From: Chiloscyllium plagiosum
Lineage: Eukaryota
NCBI RefSeq assembly: GCF_004010195.1
Contig: NC_057752.1
Location: 12,512,374-12,547,317, forward strand
DNA: 34,944 nt
Reading direction: 5' to 3'
The notes under the pieces are model-generated. The model was not told the origin of the DNA. It made no database searches and worked only from the letters and a program-made list of their open reading frames with translations. Below are positions 4,662 to 34,944 of the stretch, piece after piece. Positions within the stretch are counted from its first letter, which is position 1; each line of letters starts with the position of its first letter. The translations under genes and the position numbers were made by a program.

Positions 4662-6030
4662 TGCAACTCAGCTTGCAGCCAGCTCTTGTTCAACCTCAGA
4701 AGGCTGCACAGGAAAACGCACGGTTAAGGAGAAAGGGGAAGGTATTGCGATAAAGCAGCTAGTACTTGCACCGACGTTAGCACAGCCTCACAATGTGATG
4801 TGCCACTCTCGGATTCGAAATCTGCTGATCTTTTCAGATGGAGGGTTTATTTTGGAGCTGCTTATTCTGGGGTGGGTCCCAGCCTGGTCTCTCGGCCGGT
4901 GTTGGTGAGTCCCGGCCTGGTCTCTCGCTGGCTCATTGTGGGTCCCGGCCTGGTCTCTCAGTGGCTCATGGTGGGTCCCAGCCTAGTCTCTCGGCGGCTC
5001 ATGGTGGGTCCTGGCCTGGTCTGTCAGTGGCTCATGGTGGGTCCCGGCCTGGTCTCTCAGTGGTTCATGGTGGGTCCCGGCCTGGTCTCTCGGCGGCTCA
5101 TAGCGAGTCCCGGCCTGGTCTCTTGGCGGCTCATGGTGGGTCCCAGCCTGGTCTCTCAGTGGCTCATGGTGGGTCCCGGCCTGGTCTCTCAGTGGCTCAT
5201 GGTGGGTCCCGGGCCTGGTCTGTCAGTGGCTCATGGTGGGTCCTGGCCTGGTCTGTCAGTGGCTCATGGTGGGTCCTGGCCTGGTCTCTCAGTGGCTCAT
5301 GGTGGTTCCTGGCCTGGTGTCTCAGTGGCTCATGGTGGGTCCCGGCCTGGTCTCTCAGTGGCTCATGGTGGATCCCGGCCTGGTCTCTCAGCGGCTCATC
5401 GTGGGTCCCAGCCTGGTCTCTCAGTGGCTCATGGTGGGTCCCAGCCTGGCCTCTCAGTGGCTCACGGTGGGTCCCGGCCTGGACTCTCGGCCAAGCTCAG
5501 CCTAGTCTCTTGGCGGCTCCCGGCCTTGTCTCTCGGTAGATACCGGCTTGGTCTCTCGCTGGCTCTCAGAGTGGTCTCTCGCTGAATGTGTGGGGGTTGG
5601 TCTCTCGGCAGCTTATGATGGTATCCTGGCTCAGCGTGTGAGTGGATTCTGCCTGGGCATGTTCCCAAGGTACCTGGGGAAATCGGAGAGGCAACCGTTC
5701 CAGCACCACCAGCGGTGTTGAGAACAGGCAGCTGAGACCTCCCCAGAGAGCGAGATAGGCGGAGGACCCATCAAAGACTGTTAAACCTTAAACGTATTCC
5801 TTTATTTTCCTAGCTTAAACTATTATAGACTTAAATATAAATGACTACATATTTCTTTACTTAAAGTTTTAACTCACTTTCTCTTACTACTTTATACCTA
5901 ATTTTTTTGTCCCTCAGTCCCTTGGTACCTAAGATGACGCCATGTGTGGTGACATTACACACCTTTCACTGCGCTTTTATACTAGAGTACACATGACAAT
6001 AAAATCTAAAATCGAAAAATCGAGAAAAAA
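4662..6030 (+). mobile_element. ~1.37-kb non-autonomous retroelement with Rex1/Babar-like 3' tail and internal minisatellite
   Basis: Interrupts the host CR1 at AAATT..AAATT; ends TTTCACTG..GTACACATGACAATAAAATCTAAAATC; no RT ORF; related fragment at ~22925-23150. Confidence 0.5.
4870..5490 (+). repeat. 33-bp GC-rich minisatellite (~18-19 copies)
   Basis: Unit GGCTCATGGTGGGTCCCGGCCTGGTCTCTCAGT; gives 11-aa periodic ORFs (WLMVGPGLVSQ). Confidence 0.95.
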
Positions 6031-6192
6031 AATTGAGGGAAGGCCAACTTCAATATCATTAAACAGGAGCTGCAAACGTAGACTAGCAGGTACTTGCAAG
6101 TTAGTCTACATTTGGAAAGTGAGAAACGTTTATAAGTAATATAATGAGAGTTCGGGGCAGCATGTTCCTCTAAGATTGAAGGGGAAGGATAG

Positions 6193-6839
6193 TGTTATCA
6201 TTGTAACCAGGCCAGTCAGGTGGATCTCATAGAATCTGAGGTCCTTGACTGGGGCTGTTAACCTGGTTCAATCTGGGAGCCCTGGCTGACAGATATAAAC
6301 AAAAGTGTTGCAGGGAGTGGAGTGCATTATTTCCCCCTCTAACTCTATTTTGATTTAATCCCTACCCTCCCCTTCACTGTTTTGATCACACAGCACTGCC
6401 CTTTGATGTGAAGGGCAGTGTTTGTCACAAAAAAAAACAAAAGTGTCGCAGGGAGTGGAGTGCATTATTTCCCCCTCTAACTCTATTTTGATTTAGTCCC
6501 TACCCTCCCCCTCACTGTTTTGATCACACAGCACTGCCCTTTGATGTGAAGGGCAGTGTTTGTCACTGGCCACCCGGGTGTTTGCCGATTGTGAAAGAAA
6601 AAATAACCAGAAGATTCCGCGGTTACGTTAGGGCCCGGGTTAAAAAAAAATAAACAAAAGTGTCCTTGCTGGGTTTTCTGGTGGTCTGTTTAATAAAATA
6701 TATAAACAAGAGTGTCAGAGGTTCTGTTCACTCTGAGAGCTGGCTCTGAGGGAGCTGGGTCAGCATCAAGGACTCTCCACTCTCCAACTAAAGTGTGACT
6801 TGGTGATGGGATACTGGCCTCTGTGGGGGTAGTGTTTCA
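6193..6839 (+). mobile_element. Probable solo LTR, interrupted at 6309-6700
   Basis: TGTTAT...TTTCA termini, TATA-like GATATAAAC, ~240 bp once the insert is removed; TSD unclear (GATAG/GGCAG). Confidence 0.5.
6309..6700 (+). mobile_element. Three stacked short poly(A)/A-rich-tailed inserts, two of them L1/Tx1-like 3' ends
   Basis: Reads QGVECIISPSNSILI* then 3'UTR hairpin CACTGCCCTT/AAGGGCAGTG; A9 tails at 6429 and 6642; each unit bounded by (T)AAACAA(A/G)AGTGT. Confidence 0.7.
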
Positions 6840-7610
6840 GGCAGCGACCCAAGGCTTGAGAAAGGAAAAGAAGGAAGTGTATCGAGCACTAAGATCAGGG
6901 GAGGTTCTTCAGGTGTATAAAGATGTTGGAGGGGTGGGGAGGGTGCTTAAAAAAGAAATGAGGGCAAAGAGGAGCTTTGCTAGTTGGATTCAGGAAAGCC
7001 CTAAGGCAGTTTTTATGGCTATTAAGAGAATTGAATACCAGGGGTAGGCTGCAACCTATTAGACACCCAAAGGTGCATGGAGCAAAAAGGTTTGGGGGAG
7101 GTTTGAAAGGAATATTTCTCATCTGCATTCATAAGGGAGGTAAACACTGTCATGACGGATTTCAGTTGGGAAGGTGAGGTTCGAGAACATGTTCAGATTA
7201 ATAAAGGGGAGGCATTAGATGTTATAGCAAGCATTCAAGTGCACAAATCCCCAGAGTTTGATGAGATGTATCCCAGGATGCTAGGGGAGCCAAGGGAGGA
7301 GATTGCTGGAGCTTTGGCGGAAATATTTAATAATTCTCTGGCCACAGGTGAAGTGCCGAATGACTGGAGGATAGCTAATGTGGTTCCTCTGCTCAGGAAG
7401 GGCAGCAGGGGTAGGCCAGGTAATCACAGAGCAGATAGTCTGACAGCAGGTTGGGGGGGGAGGGGGGAAGTTATTGGAAACAATTTTGATAGGGAGCTGA
7501 GGGGGAAATCGGATTGAGGTAGACAAAATTATTCGAGGTGTAGATTGTGAGAATCTTTTCCCCATAGTAGATGGGTCTAAATTTAAGGTGAGCAGTAGGT
7601 AGTTCAGAGG

Positions 7611-8886: not shown

Positions 8887-10535
8887 AACATAGAATATAG
8901 AACAATACAGCGCAGAACAGGCCCTTCGGCCCTCGATGTTGCGCCGACCTGTGAACTATTCTCAGCTCGTCCCCCTACACTATTCCATCATTATCCATGT
9001 GCTTATCCAAGGATTGTTTAAATCTCCCTAATGTGGCNNNNNNNNNNNNNNNNNNNNNNNNNNNNNNNNNNNNNNNNNNNNNNNNNNNNNNNNNNNNNNN
9101 NNNNNNNNNNNNNNNNNNNNNNNNNNNNNNNNNNNNNNNNNNNNNNNNNNNNNNNNNNNNNNNNNNNNNNNNNNNNNNNNNNNNNNNNNNNNNNNNNNNN
9201 NNNNNNNNNNNNNNNNNNNNNNNNNNNNNNNNNNNNNNNNNNNNNNNNNNNNNNNNNNNNNNNNNNNNNNNNNNNNNNNNNNNNNNNNNNNNNNNNNNNN
9301 NNNNNNNNNNNNNNNNNNNNNNNNNNNNNNNNNNNNNNNNNNNNNNNNNNNNNNNNNNNNNNNNNNNNNNNNNNNNNNNNNNNNNNNNNNNNNNNNNNNN
9401 NNNNNNNNNNNNNNNNNNNNNNNNNNNNNNNNNNNNNNNNNNNNNNNNNNNNNNNNNNNNNNNNNNNNNNNNNNNNNNNNNNNNNNNNNNNNNNNNNNNN
9501 NNNNNNNNNNNNNNNNNNNNNNNNNNNNNNNNNNNNNNNNNNNNNNNNNNNNNNNNNNNNNNNNNNNNNNNNNNNNNNNNNNNNNNNNNNNNNNNNNNNN
9601 NNNNNNNNNNNNNNNNNNNNNNNNNNNNNNNNNNNNNNNNNNNNNNNNNNNNNNNNNNNNNNNNNNNNNNNNNNNNNNNNNNNNNNNNNNNNNNNNNNNN
9701 NNNNNNNNNNNNNNNNNNNNNNNNNNNNNNNNNNNNNNNNNNNNNNNNNNNNNNNNNNNNNNNNNNNNNNNNNNNNNNNNNNNNNNNNNNNNNNNNNNNN
9801 NNNNNNNNNNNNNNNNNNNNNNNNNNNNNNNNNNNNNNNNNNNNNNNNNNNNNNNNNNNNNNNNNNNNNNNNNNNNNNNNNNNNNNNNNNNNAATTACCT
9901 GGGTCATCTCTACTGCCCTTGTTGAACAAGGGCACAACATTTGCAATCCTCCAGTCCTCTGGTACTAAACCTGGAGACAATGACGACTCAAAGATCAAAG
10001 CCAAAGGCTCTGCTATCTCCTCCCTAGCTTCCCAGAGAATCCTCGGATAAATCCCATCCGGCCCAGGGGACTTGTCTATTTTCACTCCTTCTAGAATTGA
10101 TAGCACCTCTTCGTAACTGACCTGAATCCTTTCTAGTCTAATATCTCGTACCTCATTCCTCTCCTCTACAATATTCTCCTTTTCCTGAGTGAAAACCAAT
10201 GAGAAATGTTCATTTAGCACCTCTCCGATTTCCACAGGGTCCACACACAACTTCCCACTTCTGTCTTTGACTGACCCTATTCCTACCCTCGTCATCCTTT
10301 TATTCCTCACAGACCTATAGAAAGCTTTAGGGTTCTCCTTTATTCTACCTGCTAAAGACGGCTCATGTCCTCTCTTTCCTCTTCTTAACTGTCTCTTTAA
10401 ATCCTTCCTAGCTAATCTGTAACTCTCCATCACCTCATCTGCAACATCTCATCTCATCGTCACATAAGCCTCCTTCTTCCGCTTAACAAGAGATGCATTT
10501 TCAGTAGTAAACCACAGTTCCCTTACCTTATCACT
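8887..10535 (-). mobile_element. Young CR1/HER1 LINE (5'-truncated), spanning a gap
   Basis: Open ORF2 (IKENPKAFY, DKSPGPDGIYPRILWEAREEIAEPL, DWRIANVVPLF) and C-terminus/3' tail; splits the host LINE between AGCAATAAC and CTCAGTGACACC. Confidence 0.92.
9038..9892. other. Assembly gap (855 N)
   Basis: Run of N. Confidence 1.
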
Positions 10536-10969: not shown

Positions 10970-12415
10970 AGTTCCTCAGGGTAGTGTCCTAGGTCTTTCC
11001 ATTCACCTGCTTCATCAATGACCTTCCCTCCATCATAAGGTCAGAAGTGGGGGGTGTTCGCCAAACATTGCACAGTGTTCAGCACCATTCGCAACTCCTC
11101 AGATACTGAAGCAGTCTGTGCTCAAATGCAACATGATTTGGACAATATCCAGGCTTGGGCTGACAAGTGGCTAATATTCATTCCACCCAAATGCCAGGCT
11201 ACGACCATCTCCAACAAAAGATAATTGAACCATTACCCCTTGACATTCAATGGCATCACCATCATTGAATTCCCAACTATCAACATCCTAGGAGTTACCA
11301 TTGACCACAAACTGACTGGCCAACCACAAAACTACAGTGGCTACAACAGCAGGTCAGAGGCTAGGAATCCTGCAGCAAGTAACTCCCCTCCTGACTCCCC
11401 AAAACCTAAGGCACAAGTCAGGAGTGTGATGGAATACTCCCCACTTGCCCTGGATGGGGGCAGCTCCAACAACACTCAAGAAGGTTGACACCATCCAGGA
11501 CAAAGCAGCCGCTTTATTGGCCCCACATCCACAAACACCCACTCCCTCCCCCCACCGACGCTCAGTAGCAGCAGTGTGTACCACCTACAAGATGCACTGC
11601 AGGAATTCACCAAAGATCCTCAGACTGCACCTTCCAAACCCACGGCCACTTCCACCTAGAAGGACAAGGGCAGATGCATGGAAACACCACATTCCCTTCC
11701 AAGCCATTTACCATCCTGACTTAGAAGTATCCCTTCAGTGTCACTGGGTCAAAATCCAGGAATTCCTTCCCCAATGTCATTATGGGTTAACCTAACGCGC
11801 GGTTCAAGAAGGCAGCTCACCCCTCCTTCTCAAGGGGTAACTCGGGATGGGCAATAAATGCTGGGCCCAGCTAGTGATGTCCATGTCGCACAAGTGAATT
11901 TAAATTAAACAACACTGTCAGAGACCCACAGTTGAAACTGTGAGACCACAATTGAAATTGCTTTCAAGATCTTTCCTGAGATCTTCCTTGCAAACCAGGC
12001 AGAATACTGGTGAACAGGAAGAGAAAGTTTTGGGATTTGAGCCAATTGCTGACTTCCCATCTGGTCAGCATTTTCCGATTTCCACTCCTGTCAGGATGGC
12101 TGCTGTCTGCAGCTTCTGTATCCAGCGTGTATGAAAAGGGGCTGGGTCTACAGTGTGGGTATCCAATGGGTTGCCCTACTGGTGCCAGCATTATCATCCC
12201 TTCTCGCAGTTTATAATGGTGAAGGTGGCCAAAGGGCCCAGAATAATGGACTGTCCTTAAAGGGCCCAAAAAGGGAGAAGATTCTTCTAGCTTCCACTCC
12301 CTCCATTTCATTCCAAGATGTCTTCATTCTAGATCTGTCATCACAGTAAATCCTTCTTCTGCTGGGTTTGCTTTTGATGGTTACGGTGAGTGAAAGCCAC
12401 CCTATGGGCTGAGGA

Positions 12416-13037
12416 GTGGCAGATCGAGTAGCCCACAAACCCACCGACACACTAAAACAGCAGCTAATGAACTTGAAAGGCCATATCCAGACAACAAGCA
12501 AAACTAATGTCATTTACAAAATACCGTGCAAGGACTGTAACAAACACTACATTGGACAAACAGGCAGAAAATTAACCACCAGGATACATGAACACCAACT
12601 CGCCACAAAAAGACATGACCCTCTCTCACTAGTATCCTCACATACGGATGAGGAAGGACACCACTTCTACTGGGACAATACATCCATCCGTGGAGAAGCC
12701 AAACAAAGACACGCACGAGAATTCCTAGAAGCATGGCATTCCAACTGGAACTCTATCAACAAACACATCGAGTTAGACCCCATCTACCACCACCTGAGAA
12801 AAAAGAACAGGAAGTGACTTCACTACAGGAAATGATGTCACCACTGGAAATGACATCACCAACCCAAAGAAAACCAAACATATAAATAGAATGCAGGAAT
12901 TATCAACAGTGCTTCACCTGAGGCCCACTGAAGATGTTACCTAGTAGGGTGACGAAACGTCTGGAAATGAACCTTCCAGCTTAGCGAGCAAACCTACATC
13001 CAAAATCTCAACCTGAGCTACCAACCTTCTCAAAACA
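12416..13037 (+). mobile_element. Penelope-like element 3' fragment (GIY-YIG endonuclease + pLTR)
   Basis: NVIYKIPCKDCNKHYIGQTGRKLTTRIHEH..REFLEAWH..SIN GIY-YIG domain followed by a hammerhead-containing tail. Confidence 0.93.
12925..12964 (+). ncRNA. Minimal type I hammerhead ribozyme
   Basis: CCA-CTGAAGA-T-GTTACC-TAGTAG-GGTGAC-GAAA-CGTC-TGG: core boxes, 6-bp stem II, CCA/TGG stem I, GUC cleavage triplet ending at 12961. Confidence 0.85.
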
Positions 13038-13905: not shown

Positions 13906-14089
13906 ACATCTGGAATGAGTATCCAAGGCCTGGAATACCCATAGACGCACACATCTGGAGTGAGTGTCCGAGGCCTGAAATAGCCATAGACGCACACATC
14001 TGGAATGAGTGTCCGAGGCCTGAAATAGCCATAGACGCACACATCTGGAATGAGTGTCCGAGGCCTAGAATAGCCGTGGGCGCACACAT
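13906..14089 (+). repeat. 45-bp minisatellite, 4 copies
   Basis: ACATCTGGAATGAGTGTCCGAGGCCTGAAATAGCCATAGACGCAC at 13906, 13951, 13996, 14041. Confidence 0.95.
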
Positions 14090-14340
14090 GAGTGCGTGTT
14101 CATGCCCGTTCATTCACTGTAAGGTGCAGTTACAGATGATGGCATCAGCCAGGAAACAACAGAAATAGGACAGCAAAAAAACTGAATTTTAAAAAGAATC
14201 CAATAGTGAGAATATGTTATTTAGTCCGGCTGCCCACACGAGCGTAATTATATAGTACACATGGAGGAACTGTGTGTAATGCAAATGACTACACTTATGG
14301 AACTTGATGAAACATGACATGACATGAACAGTTCTGCTCT

Positions 14341-14623
14341 TTTCTTTTTTTAATTCCTCCCCCCACACTCCCACCTGATAGCAGTCGTGCTTATTTTTTC
14401 CCCACCACCCATGTTGTGTGTGTGTGCAGGTCTGAGACACAGTGAGAGACACAAGGTGCACGAATCTTTATTCAGTTTCCACCACCAGGAAGATAGGAAA
14501 CACCCGAGTGGCCAGTGACAAGCACTGCCCTTCACATCAAAGGGCAATGCTGTTTGATCAAACAGTGAGGGGAGGAGGGCAGGGGGAGGGCAGGGAGAGG
14601 GGGAAATAATACACTCCACTCCC
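14341..14623 (-). mobile_element. L1/Tx1-like 3' end with A-rich tail and 14-bp TSD
   Basis: Minus strand starts GGGAGTGGAGTG (GVECIISPS), same hairpin as 6309-6650; TSD AACAGTTCTG(C/T)TCT at 14327-14340 and 14624-14637. Confidence 0.8.
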
Positions 14624-14824
14624 AACAGTTCTGTTCTTCCTGTGAGTAAATAATCTTAGTTGCTCCTCCCACAGTTTTTTATCAATGCTGAGATTTAGCT
14701 ATATGCCATTTCATCATTGAGTCATAAAATGTGAATAATCGCCACAACAGAGACTGCCTGGAGTCACATATAAACATGTGAAGACCTGCTTACTTTTCTT
14801 GAACAACAGCCCTTCCTCAGTTTG

Positions 14825-16445
14825 ACTCATGGCTGTTTACAGCACAGGAGGAGGTCATCCATCTGCCCCAGGCAATAAGGACCTGACCACACTAATCCCA
14901 TTTTCCAACACTTTGGCCCATAGCACTGGAGGCTATAGCAATGCAGGTGACTATCAAAACACTAAGGAAATATTCCAAGAGTTTTAGACTCAATCATTCC
15001 TTCAAGCAATGAGTTCCACAGTCCCAGCACTCTCCAAGTGGAAAACGTTTTCCTCAACTCTCCGCTTAGCCTCTAACTCTGACCTTCAATCTATGTATTG
15101 CCTCCTCTAATGATGGGAAAAGTGTCTTCTCATCCACCCTATGGCCCTCATAATCGTATACATCTCTACTGGATCCCCTCTCAACATTCACTACTCCAAA
15201 GAAAACATCCACAGCCTCTCCAATCTTTCCCCCTTTCTCAACCCTTCCAGTCCAGACAGCATCCTGCTAAATCACTTCTGCCCCCTGTGTGGTGCAGTCA
15301 CACCCCTCCTGTAATGTGGTGACCAGAACAGCATGCAGTCCTCTGGTTGTGGCCTAACCAGCATTTGATACAGTTTCAGCATATCTCCTTCTTCCTGTAC
15401 TCTGTGCCTTGACTAATAAAGGGAAGTATACCATATGCCTTCTGAACCAGCTTAGCTGCCTGCCCTGCTACCTACAGGGTTCTGCGCGTATGTCGACCAA
15501 GGTCTCTCTGATCTCCAGTATTTTCCAGGGTCCTACATTTGGAGTGTAATCCCTTGCCTTGTTCGTTCTCCCCTACCTCACACTTTTCAGTATCAGATTC
15601 CATTTCTCACTGCTCTGCCCACTTGGCCAATCCACTGATGTCTTCCTGCAATCCATGGCCTTTCCTTCTCACTCTTTAACACCTTTCCAATTTTTGTGGA
15701 TTCTGCAAACTTGTTGCGCATACCCCCGACTTTCAAGTTCAGATTATGAACGCATACCACAAACAGTGAGGGTTCCAGCACTGGAAACAGGCTTCGTGAT
15801 AGAAACCATCCCCCTCAGCTTCCTGCCTCTCAGCCTGTGGATCCAACATGTCACCTTACCTTGAATTCCCATGGACCCTTACTGTCTTGATCAGTTTGCC
15901 ATGAGGGACCTTAGCACAAGCCTTGTTAAAGTCCACGTAAACCACATCAAGTGCATTCCCCTCATCAACAGTGCTGGTTACATCCTCAAAACATTCCATT
16001 ACATTCATCAAACATGGCGTTCCTTTAGCAAATCCCTGCTGACTATCCCTGATAAATCTTTGTCTCTCTAAGTGCAGATATATTCTGTCCCTCAGAATTC
16101 TTTCTAACTGCCCCACCATTGGGGTTAGATTGGCTGGCCTGTCATTTTCCGTTGTCCCTGCCTGCCTTTTTTTAATTCGGAGATGCCGGTGTTGGACTGG
16201 GGTGTACAAAGTTAAAAATCGCACAACATCAGGTTTTAGTCCAACAGGTTTGTTTGGAAGCACTAGCTTCATCTGATGAAGGAGCAGCATTCTGAAAGCT
16301 AGTGTTTCCAAATAAACCTGGTGTTGTGTGATTTTTAACTTTTTCCCTTTATTAAAATAATAATGGGACAACATCAGCAGTGCTCCAGATCTCTGGCACC
16401 TCTCCTTTGGCCTGAGGATTTGAACATTGCTACCCAACGGTCTCA
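14825..16445 (-). mobile_element. Old CR1 LINE, RT to 3' end
   Basis: DSQQGFAKG..C, DVVYVDFNKACAKVPHGKL; many frameshifts. Confidence 0.85.
16176..16342. mobile_element. Penelope-derived inverted-repeat (fold-back) mini-element
   Basis: Arms ~16209-16269 and ~16296-16342 are reverse complements; the centre holds CTGATGA..GAAAGCTA. Confidence 0.75.
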
Positions 16446-19016: not shown

Positions 19017-19602
19017 GACTTCATAGTGGCTCAGTGGTTAGCACTGCTGCCTCAAAGCACCAGGGACCTGGGTTCAATTCCAGCCTTGGGCAACTGTGTG
19101 GAGTTTATACATTCTGCGTCTGTGTGAGTTTCCTCCCGGTGCTCTGGTTTCCTCCTGCCACAGTCCAAAGATGTGCAGGTTAGGGTGGATTGGCGATGCT
19201 AAATTACCCATAATGCCCAGGGATGTGTAGGTTAGAGTGGATTGGCCATGCTAAATTACCCATAATGCCCAGGGATGTGTAGGTCAGGGTGGATTGGCCA
19301 TGCTAAATTGTCCCATAATGCTCAGGGATGTGTAGGTTAGGGTGGATTGGCGATGCTAAATTACCCATAGTGCCCAGGGATGTGCAGGTTAGGGTGGATT
19401 GGCCATGCTAAATTGTCCCATAGTGCCCTGGGATGGGCAGGTTAGGGTGGATTGGCCATGCTAAATTGTCCCATAGTTCCCAGGGATGCGCAGGTTCGAG
19501 TGGGTTAGCCAAGGGGAATGCAGGGTTACAGCGTGGAGGAGTGTGTCTTGGTGGGATGCTCGATGGGCTGAATAGCCTGCTTCCCCACTGTCGGGATTCT
19601 CT
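19017..19602 (+). mobile_element. HE1 V-SINE with 6 x 52-53-bp tandem units
   Basis: A/B boxes, V-domain, units starting at 19170, 19222, 19274, 19327, 19379, 19432. Confidence 0.9.
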
Positions 19603-21689: not shown

Positions 21690-22233
21690 TGCTAATAGGT
21701 GCAAGTATCCCCTATGCCTTCTGAACCAGCTTAGCTGCCTGCCCTGCTACCTACAGGGTTCTGTGTGTATATACATCAAGGTCTCTCTGATCTCCAGTAT
21801 TTTCCAGGGTCCTACATTCATTCTCCCCTACCTCACACTTTTCAGTATCAGATTCCATTTCTCACTGCTCTGCCCACTTGGCCAATCCACTGATGTCTTC
21901 CTGCAGTCCACGGCCTTTCCTTCTCACTCTTTAACACCTTTCCAATTTTTGTAGATTCTGAAAACTTGTTGATCACACCCCCCTACATTCAATTCCAAAT
22001 CAGTAATGCGTCCCACAAACAGCGAGGCTTCCAGTGATAGAAACATTCCTCGACCATCCCCCTCAGCTTCCTGCCTCTCAGCCTGTGGTGGATCCAACAT
22101 GTCACCTTGCCTTGGATTCCCATGGACCCTTACTGTCTTGGTCAGTTTGCCATGAGGGACCTTAGCACCAGCCTTGTTAAAGTCTACCTCGACCACATCA
22201 AGTGCATTCCCCTCATCAACAGTGCTGGTTACA
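21690..22233 (-). mobile_element. Decayed CR1 fragment, near-duplicate of 15411-15983
   Basis: Long identical tracts and shared lesions with 15411-15983. Confidence 0.85.
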
Positions 22234-22254
22234 TCTCTAACCAAACTTTGTCCA

Positions 22255-34397: not shown

Positions 34398-34529
34398 GTG
34401 AGAGTGACGCTCGGGAATGAGAGCGCTGTGCGGCCAATAGCGCACGGGCCCACAATCTCTGGTCGCTGCATTGATGAAGGCAGCTCACCTTTGCCCTTGT
34501 ATGTGTCTCTCTCTCTCTCTCTCTGTCAG

Positions 34530-34590
34530 GACAAAGCAGCTGCTGCCAATGCAGATTGATGGAGAGCCATGGCTCCAGCCACCGTGTACA
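34530..34590 (+). CDS. dgka: Diacylglycerol kinase alpha-like penultimate coding exon
   Basis: (CT)n tract, gtcag|TKQLLPMQIDGEPWLQPPCT|gtaagt; conserved PMQIDGEPW motif; 61 nt. Confidence 0.95.
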
Positions 34591-34944
34591 GTAAGTCACA
34601 GTTCACCACACCGACCTTCTCAAGGAGAGGCAGCCATCTTGGATATTCGAAAATACATCCTGACCAGACAAAAGCACAATCACACTGGGCAGGCCACCGG
34701 GCATCGAGAGACTGGCAGGGGACAGGTCAATGAGAGACTGGCAAGGGGACAAAGCAGCTGCTGCCAATGCAGATTGATGGAGAGCCATGGCTCCAGCCAC
34801 CGTGTACAGTAAGTCACAGTTCACCACACCGACCTTCTCAAGGAGAGGCAGCCATCTTGGATATTCGAAAATACATCCTGACCAGACAAAAGCACAATCA
34901 CACTGGGCAGGCCACCGGGCATCGAGAGACTGGCAGGGGACAGG
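34530..34944 (+). repeat. 218-bp tandem duplication containing the exon and its donor
   Basis: 34748-34944 is identical by eye to 34530-34726 and runs off the window end. Confidence 0.92.

Follow-up and report, generated by a model that had tools for sequence, protein, structure and literature searches.

Stacked LINE fragments at a recurrently struck site within an LTR-like repeat of Chiloscyllium plagiosum

How do fragments of one retrotransposon come to lie one behind another inside a different repeat, parted by copies of the same short motif? The question is raised by a locus of Chiloscyllium plagiosum which a sequence-only reading had interpreted as three retro-insertions stacked at one target site of a probable LTR, as if an endonuclease had cut its own regenerated target duplication again. 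We analysed the locus within a window of 34,944 nt (the whole stretch of DNA under analysis), which is gapped, repeat-rich eukaryotic DNA with five runs of N and with decayed LINE ORFs that give Pfam matches to reverse transcriptase and endonuclease. The window was matched at 85% likeness to four public data sets, namely the contig sets X15 and X1 and the raw-read sets X19 and X20, the last two being samples of about 4 in 100 of the run, with 1,934 million letters apiece. All four sets carry a single organism label, and a relationship of X15 or X1 to the assembled sample is possible.

The host repeat and its empty site

The repeat that harbours the array is divided into two halves, both on the + strand. 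The left half (6202-6308) starts with TG and contains a TATA-like box at 6292-6299 and the first copy of the motif at 6297-6308; the right half (6716-6839) ends with CA. Besides sequence, the left half was delimited by repeat contigs that begin at 6200 and by read depth, which in X19 is 0-1.3 over the unique flank, climbs from ~10 to ~2,290 into the left half and reaches ~2,560 over the right half, with loose read ends behind 6780 and 6826. Once the inserted block is taken out, the host measures ~231 bp. TG at 6202, the TATA-like box, CA at 6839 and the high copy number correspond to the layout of a solo LTR, and most host copies also contain an AATAAA poly(A) signal near 6785 (behind 6780) that has been lost from this copy. 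A flanking duplication of 4-6 bp was found at none of the six start and end pairs tried in this copy, whose ends may be misplaced or decayed, and the window holds no gag/pol-type internal domain linked to the host. The earlier suggestion of an LTR host is thus backed by layout, poly(A) signal and copy number but not by a flanking duplication, and on its sequence features the host is probably a solo LTR of an LTR retrotransposon. The host-repeat pattern had 0 matches in viral contigs.

The host repeat is itself embedded in a decayed LINE ORF (5990-6195 and 6840-7520). Its right flank matches another LINE ORF remnant at 9894-10247 (tblastx E 2e-27 to 9894-10133), and its left flank, up to 6195, presumably reads like the same decayed ORF, a likeness judged by eye only. 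The purine tract at 6178-6189 was considered as a polypurine tract and rejected, since by translation it reads as a probable part of the decayed left-flank LINE ORF.

According to the sequence-only reading, removal of the inserts would restore a contiguous host. This empty form occurs naturally, as a joint that skips the 407-bp block was present in 200 X19 reads, 142 X20 reads, 9 X15 contigs and 12 X1 contigs. Regarding the filled form, one X15 contig matches 6602-6729 with zero differences, and in the unique left flank the match is exact up to 6298 for X15 contigs and up to 6292 for X1 contigs, so that an assembly artefact can be dismissed for the right half. The same check gave less for the left half, where the junction between inserts 1 and 2 was spanned by none of the best 16 of 35,115 pieces and X15 depth falls to 0 at 6440-6441, a hole that is no proof of absence.

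Target duplications and anatomy of the inserts

The 12-mer AAACAA(A/G)AGTGT starts at 6297, 6435, 6652 and 6704 and at no other position on either strand of the window, so that the four motif copies noticed before (at 6294, 6435, 6651 and 6701) are real and had been placed within 3 bases. Exclusion of the duplicated unit leaves three copies, a number reached in 0/500 dinucleotide shuffles (maximum 2). Copies 2, 3 and 4, all on the + strand, are preceded by A6, by T plus A8 and by AATAAAAT, which define target duplications of 12, 14 and 16 bp with a common right end and a differing, A-rich left end. The A6 tail and copy 2 (6435-6446) occupy 6429-6446, the T plus A8 tail and copy 3 (6650-6663) occupy 6641-6663 within the exact X15 contig, and copy 4 with its 16-bp duplication occupies 6700-6715. 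A-rich tails (A6, A8 and AATAAAA) therefore precede all of copies 2-4. A fixed right end together with a variable A-rich left end suggests that the top strand was cut at a fixed point and that there was some play in the bottom-strand nick or in priming.

The letters of the motif also carry information about order. At motif positions 6 and 7, 79-87% of host reads show G. Both its sequence and the read letters show that copy 4 keeps the G at position 7, as do ~80% of host reads, whereas copies 1-3 have A there. Compared with the majority host letters, copy 4 is changed at one motif position and copies 1-3 at two, the second change being common to the three, which suggests that insert 3 most likely arrived first and that the copy on its left then changed and was cut again. 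Reads and contigs that cross copies 2 and 3 carry the majority G at 6440-6441 and 6657-6658 (at 6657, 10/15 and 8/14 reads), which shows that other loci have similar tail-plus-target junctions.

Insert 1 consists of a LINE piece, A′ (6309-6428, + strand), that was recognised by translation, alignment and high read depth. It contains the last 15 codons and the stop of the ORF, ~70 nt of 3′ UTR and a 13-bp hairpin at 6392-6422, assigned through its twin in the following piece, and it is cut at both ends. Insert 2 opens with that following piece, A (6447-6583, + strand; hairpin at 6530-6560), which begins at the same base of the LINE and is 17 nt longer. Reads with loose ends mark its limits: 1,475 and 1,418 reads break off before 6447, and 3,818 and 3,568 behind 6583, where the 3′ UTR of the family diverges. 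In the former reads the family continues upstream of 6447; the latter continue differently, so that both A and A′ stop within the 3′ UTR, short of the true end of the family. A′ ends 6 and A 23 bases behind the hairpin. Inserts 1 and 2 form a 138-bp near-repeat that is 97% alike, with 3 differences in 132 bases, and share not only the first base but also a variant (6340/6478) found in 191/4,749 and 170/4,316 reads (~4%). The same start base, the small number of differences and the common rare letter indicate that both inserts derive from one source.

Such a likeness might also be expected if insert 1 were a later 138-bp duplication at the DNA level, or if the assembler had joined two haplotypes, and the site would then have been struck fewer times. 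Apart from the period-138 repeat itself, at 97% likeness, this explanation can draw on the junction at which X15 depth is 0 (6440-6441) and for which there is no spanning record among those listed, and on a gapped window that closes with a 218-bp repeat of 100% identity. It fits poorly with the six bases in front of copy 2, which are all A as against AGATAT in front of copy 1 and would require three directed changes (P ~4e-7 given the observed rate), or with the three places at which the units differ, one of which has the majority read letter in unit 2 and another in unit 1. The pure-A junction makes a plain DNA duplication unlikely, and we consider this origin, in either form, very improbable.

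Behind A, the segment 6584-6616 (+ strand) comprises 10 nt, an A-rich run and, at 6603-6616, what is probably a degenerate fifth copy of the target that agrees with it at 10/14 bases. Shuffle tests gave p 0.074 for such a match anywhere, 0.012 for a match in register with the next piece and 0.002 when the A-run was included (15/19). The next piece, B (6615-6640, + strand), is a 26-nt internal fragment of the LINE ORF that in intact copies lies upstream of 6447: the joint from 6640 to 6447, which goes back 194, was found in 361 and 324 reads, and 347 reads have a loose end before 6615. The depth over B is about the share expected from the joint reads alone. Insert 2 is therefore a composite of piece A, the A-rich run with the degenerate target and the out-of-order piece B. 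As a whole, it folds no better than shuffles (z -1.08). We also observed the 7-mer CCCGGGT at 6573-6579 and 6634-6640; it ends 4 bases ahead of the internal 3′ break point of A and exactly at that of B, the array having three such points.

Insert 3 (6664-6699, + strand) is 36 nt long, ends with AATAAA and has a depth near single-copy. The idea that it is the 3′ end of a high-copy element finds no support in this depth, although read matching apparently misses short stand-alone matches. It bears a weak likeness to the distal 3′ UTR of the LINE, with p 0.018 for a chosen 61-nt part and 0.053 for the whole of the dispersed copy discussed below. The sequence-only reading had seen three separate insertions, each with a poly(A) or A-rich 3′ end. 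The A-rich tails and the motif between the inserts speak for that description, but A′, A and B stop internally, insert 2 is composite, and inserts 1 and 2 are a near-repeat with a common first base and the 4% variant.

The LINE family and its landing site in other host copies

The LINE family to which A, A′ and B belong is abundant, with a summed X19 depth of about 5,200-5,400. A dispersed copy lies outside any LTR on the - strand of the window (14327-14638). Its 3′ end is complete and A-tailed, and it is flanked by a 15-bp duplication with one mismatch (14624-14638 and 14327-14341), which indicates an ordinary target-primed insertion. It is 5′-truncated only 4 nt away from where A and A′ begin, a near coincidence hinting at a truncation hot spot near the end of the ORF. 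The duplication agrees with the motif of the array at 9/14 bases (p 0.008 against all 14-mers of the window, 0.07 against A-rich starts). The LINE is poly(A)-tailed and may be of the L1/Tx1 type, and the end of its ORF presumably resembles the ends of Tx1 ORF2. Proteins from two frames of the window had zero matches at E<=10 (41 and 2 candidates). When eight frames were compared with Pfam, three fragments were named, all unrelated to the array, and the three array-related frames had no match, one of these pieces being, at only 21 aa, too short to expect any. Members of the Tx1 clade are recognised by an APE-type endonuclease and by a reverse transcriptase that groups with those of Tx1L, Keno and Kibi/Koshi; within the window there is no reverse transcriptase or endonuclease domain of the array LINE family. 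A 20-nt pattern from the LINE hairpin was found in 11 metagenome loci and 1 viral locus and rejected as chance, given that 11/12 match over 20-24 bases only and one over 70 nt at 76%; the LINE pattern had 0 matches in prokaryote genomes.

Whether other copies of the host are struck at the same site could be read from joints between host and LINE. Our joint evidence consists of the best-supported rows, that is, 15 of 543 joints and 12 of 603 between-letter rows. Among them are 11 distinct joints that lead from the host left half into the LINE, all in the same sense; the remaining rows are empty-site or host-variant joints and one LINE-internal joint. Nine of the 11 fall within one base of 6308/6309, right after the motif (between-letter rows being read against the window), and the remaining two are either 7-18 bases further upstream or not clearly placed. 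For these rows only, which are a best-supported selection, such clustering has P ~2e-15 against uniform placement. The LINE starts at at least seven different points among these joints, between about +37 and +114 when counted from the first full codon, and at none of them does it start at the -2 of the array. All 11 joints come from X15 contigs (one also from X1), and the six listed with a side have a short side of 21-36 letters. In the rows at hand they have zero raw-read support, which is what a depth of roughly 0.5-1-fold would give for single loci. Other copies of the LTR-like repeat are thus hit at this site, by insertions that are independent in their truncations and uniform in target position and orientation. 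That the target duplication is regenerated at a recurrent site, as had been proposed, agrees with the joining of one host base to differently truncated LINE copies and with the G/A pattern, which fits re-cutting of the 5′ copy.

Occupancy of the site was estimated by read depth and not copy by copy. At position 6701, A replaces T in 90/147 and 94/137 counted reads and in 33 and 54 contigs. We take these letters to be A tails in front of the host right half, empty copies being clipped there, and the A-tailed site so deduced would amount to about 3.5-6.6% of host depth (at most about 9.5%). This is some thousand- to 30,000-fold above random placement. Seen from the LINE, the site accounts for about 1.8-2.9% of its depth at 85% likeness, and ~97% of the depth lies elsewhere. 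The data fall short of strict target specificity, given this small share of about 2-3% and the dispersed copy at 14327-14638 outside any LTR. In the accessible text of Kojima's survey, a Tx1 family counts as target-specific when more than 20% of its copies are at the target (PMC4494074), a level that the broad LINE family, with about 1.8-2.9% of depth at the site, does not reach. A dedicated target-specific subfamily within the LINE pool is possible.

Might there be no real preference at all, with one old insertion spread by amplification of the host, or with the A/T-rich TATA box serving as a generic L1-type target? The LINE being mostly elsewhere (about 97% of depth) is compatible with this, as are the contig depths at the joints, 88-252, which exceed the X15 single-copy depth of 13-21. 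Against a single spread insertion stand the at least seven LINE truncation points at the same host base, and variant host letters at the joints suggest that these truncation points are distributed across unrelated host subfamilies. A generic A/T-rich target is at odds with the fixed point of the duplications, which is their G/T-rich right end and not the A-rich left end. We regard the absence of preference as most improbable. The well-supported conclusion is that this site is a strong hot spot for LINE insertion.

Growth of the array and related systems

To account for the array on such a hot spot, we favour, with moderate confidence, a model that combines a preference of the LINE endonuclease for the TATA site of the LTR-like repeat with growth of the array from right to left in at least two rounds, using A-tailed pieces of RNA. 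The endonuclease of the abundant LINE would prefer a sequence that is well fitted by the TATA-box site of the ~230-bp LTR-like repeat. It would nick the bottom strand in the T-rich TATA region, at a point that can shift by a few bases, and would cut the top strand right after the GTGT of the motif. Every insertion would leave a duplication of 12-16 bp and so rebuild the site. Insert 3 would have come first, after which the target copy on the left would have mutated from G to A; later rounds, perhaps a single multi-template event, would have cut this left copy and copied in broken, A-tailed RNA pieces (B, A and A′) of one source element. Broken A-tailed RNA of one element is suggested as the template by three features: A and A′ begin at the same base, the tails are internal, and B is out of order. 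Several observations sit uneasily with the model: independent rounds explain poorly the common start and the 4% variant of A and A′, the order of insertions depends on one base, the A′/A junction has no spanning record among those listed, no more than about 2-3% of LINE depth is explained by the site, and the dispersed duplication resembles the motif weakly when measured against A-rich starts (p 0.07).

With the same hot spot, most of the array could instead have arisen in one messy event, in which the reverse transcriptase, on reaching the end of an RNA piece, switched to the cut top strand, used the target as template, added T's and primed anew on another or the same piece, this cycle being repeated several times. 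Human L1 ORF2p is described in the accessible text of PMC10830420 as making concatemers by non-templated addition and template jumping, and several features of the array have this character: A and A′ share their start base and family variants, the tails follow internal positions instead of the 3′ end, and B is out of order and preceded by a target that looks miscopied (4 differences in 14 bases, against 3 in 132 between A and A′). However, in a single event copies 1 and 4 would represent both strands of one original site and would be expected to agree throughout, and they differ at motif position 7, where copies 2 and 3 side with copy 1. We rate the one-event origin as rather unlikely. A hybrid, with insert 3 first and one multi-template event afterwards, fits everything and is in part already counted within the sequential model.

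Less likely still, in our estimation, is a more far-reaching version in which a LINE subfamily marked by the 4% variant of A and A′ is dedicated to the LTR TATA box, captures the promoter and loads RNA fragments by template jumping. If this were true, landing in sense behind the TATA box would allow full-length copies to take over the LTR promoter while disabling it, and arrays would document both the decay products of RNA and multi-template insertion in the vertebrate germ line.

Returning to the sequential model, its central elements have precedents, since aimed and stacked insertion is already described for related elements, both as Tx1-type LINEs in transposons and as arrays split by target duplications. 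According to the accessible text of Kojima 2015 (PMC4494074), the crocodilian Tx1 families Tx1-8_Crp and Tx1-4_AMi insert preferentially into LTR retrotransposons. They resemble the array LINE in preferring specific LTR repeats, but there a family is called target-specific if more than 20% of its flanks are the target, as against about 2-3% for the array LINE, which is likened to Tx1 by insertion behaviour (PMC4494074). The same source describes tandem copies of SINEU-3 / Tx1-Mar in Mariner-N4_AMi that sandwich a 16 bp duplication and are read as sequential insertion (PMC4494074). Tandem insertion around a target duplication within another transposon is what the two cases share; in SINEU-3 the host is a DNA transposon, the cargo is a snRNA-derived SINE and 313/347 copies are on target, whereas here broken LINE pieces are inserted and the share is small (PMC4494074).

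A close parallel in architecture is found in the R1 arrays of Drosophila 28S genes, in which, as far as the accessible text goes, copies are separated by a 14-bp duplication and insertion takes place into the duplication 5′ of the resident element (Stage and Eickbush 2009, PMC2718515). Also reported there are a top-strand cut at a fixed position and microhomologies where the 5′ ends are truncated (PMC2718515). Copies parted by the target duplication, re-cutting of the 5′ copy and the fixed top-strand cut are features that both share; R1 differs in its rDNA target, its clade, its fixed bottom-strand cut and its true 3′ ends, whereas in the present array the A-tail side varies by 4 bases and there is no true 3′ end (PMC2718515). 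Likewise, the portions available to us describe Tx1L of Xenopus as inserting, as determined by its endonuclease, at one site of another transposon, Tx1D (PMC1950540, PMC4494074). This one-site insertion into a transposon resembles that of the array LINE, but Tx1L is stringent and its endonuclease specificity was demonstrated in vitro, whereas for the array LINE a preference is suggested by its insertion sites (PMC1950540, PMC4494074). Literature on this LINE family or site in cartilaginous fish was not found in a search whose scope lay outside subscription papers, Repbase, Dfam and the supplements of PMC4494074.

With thousands of host copies, of which a few percent are occupied at one base, the repeat offers a natural data set on nicking and preference by a vertebrate LINE endonuclease, and data on nick position and preference would benefit work on site-directed retroelement tools. 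In turn, arrays whose pieces are internally tailed could serve to gauge the frequency with which a LINE reverse transcriptase uses broken RNA or switches templates in vivo.

Other features of the window were recorded alongside. A bacterial promoter scan of the window had no match, this type of scan being unsuited to eukaryotic DNA. The 218-bp tandem repeat at the end of the window (34529-34944, 100% identical) is probably an assembly overlap. Minisatellites are found at 4871-5488 (period 33 bp), at 2165-2542 and 19170-19511 (53 bp) and at 13906-14089 (45 bp). A frame at 12413-12817 (+ strand) has a weak Pfam match to GIY-YIG (E 0.0017, below the curated cut-off) and, judging from this match, is probably a Penelope-like fragment. 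Finally, 15413-15984 and 21692-22235, about 6.25 kb apart, share three colinear direct-repeat blocks of 91-95% identity, which suggests a local duplication or a composite repeat.
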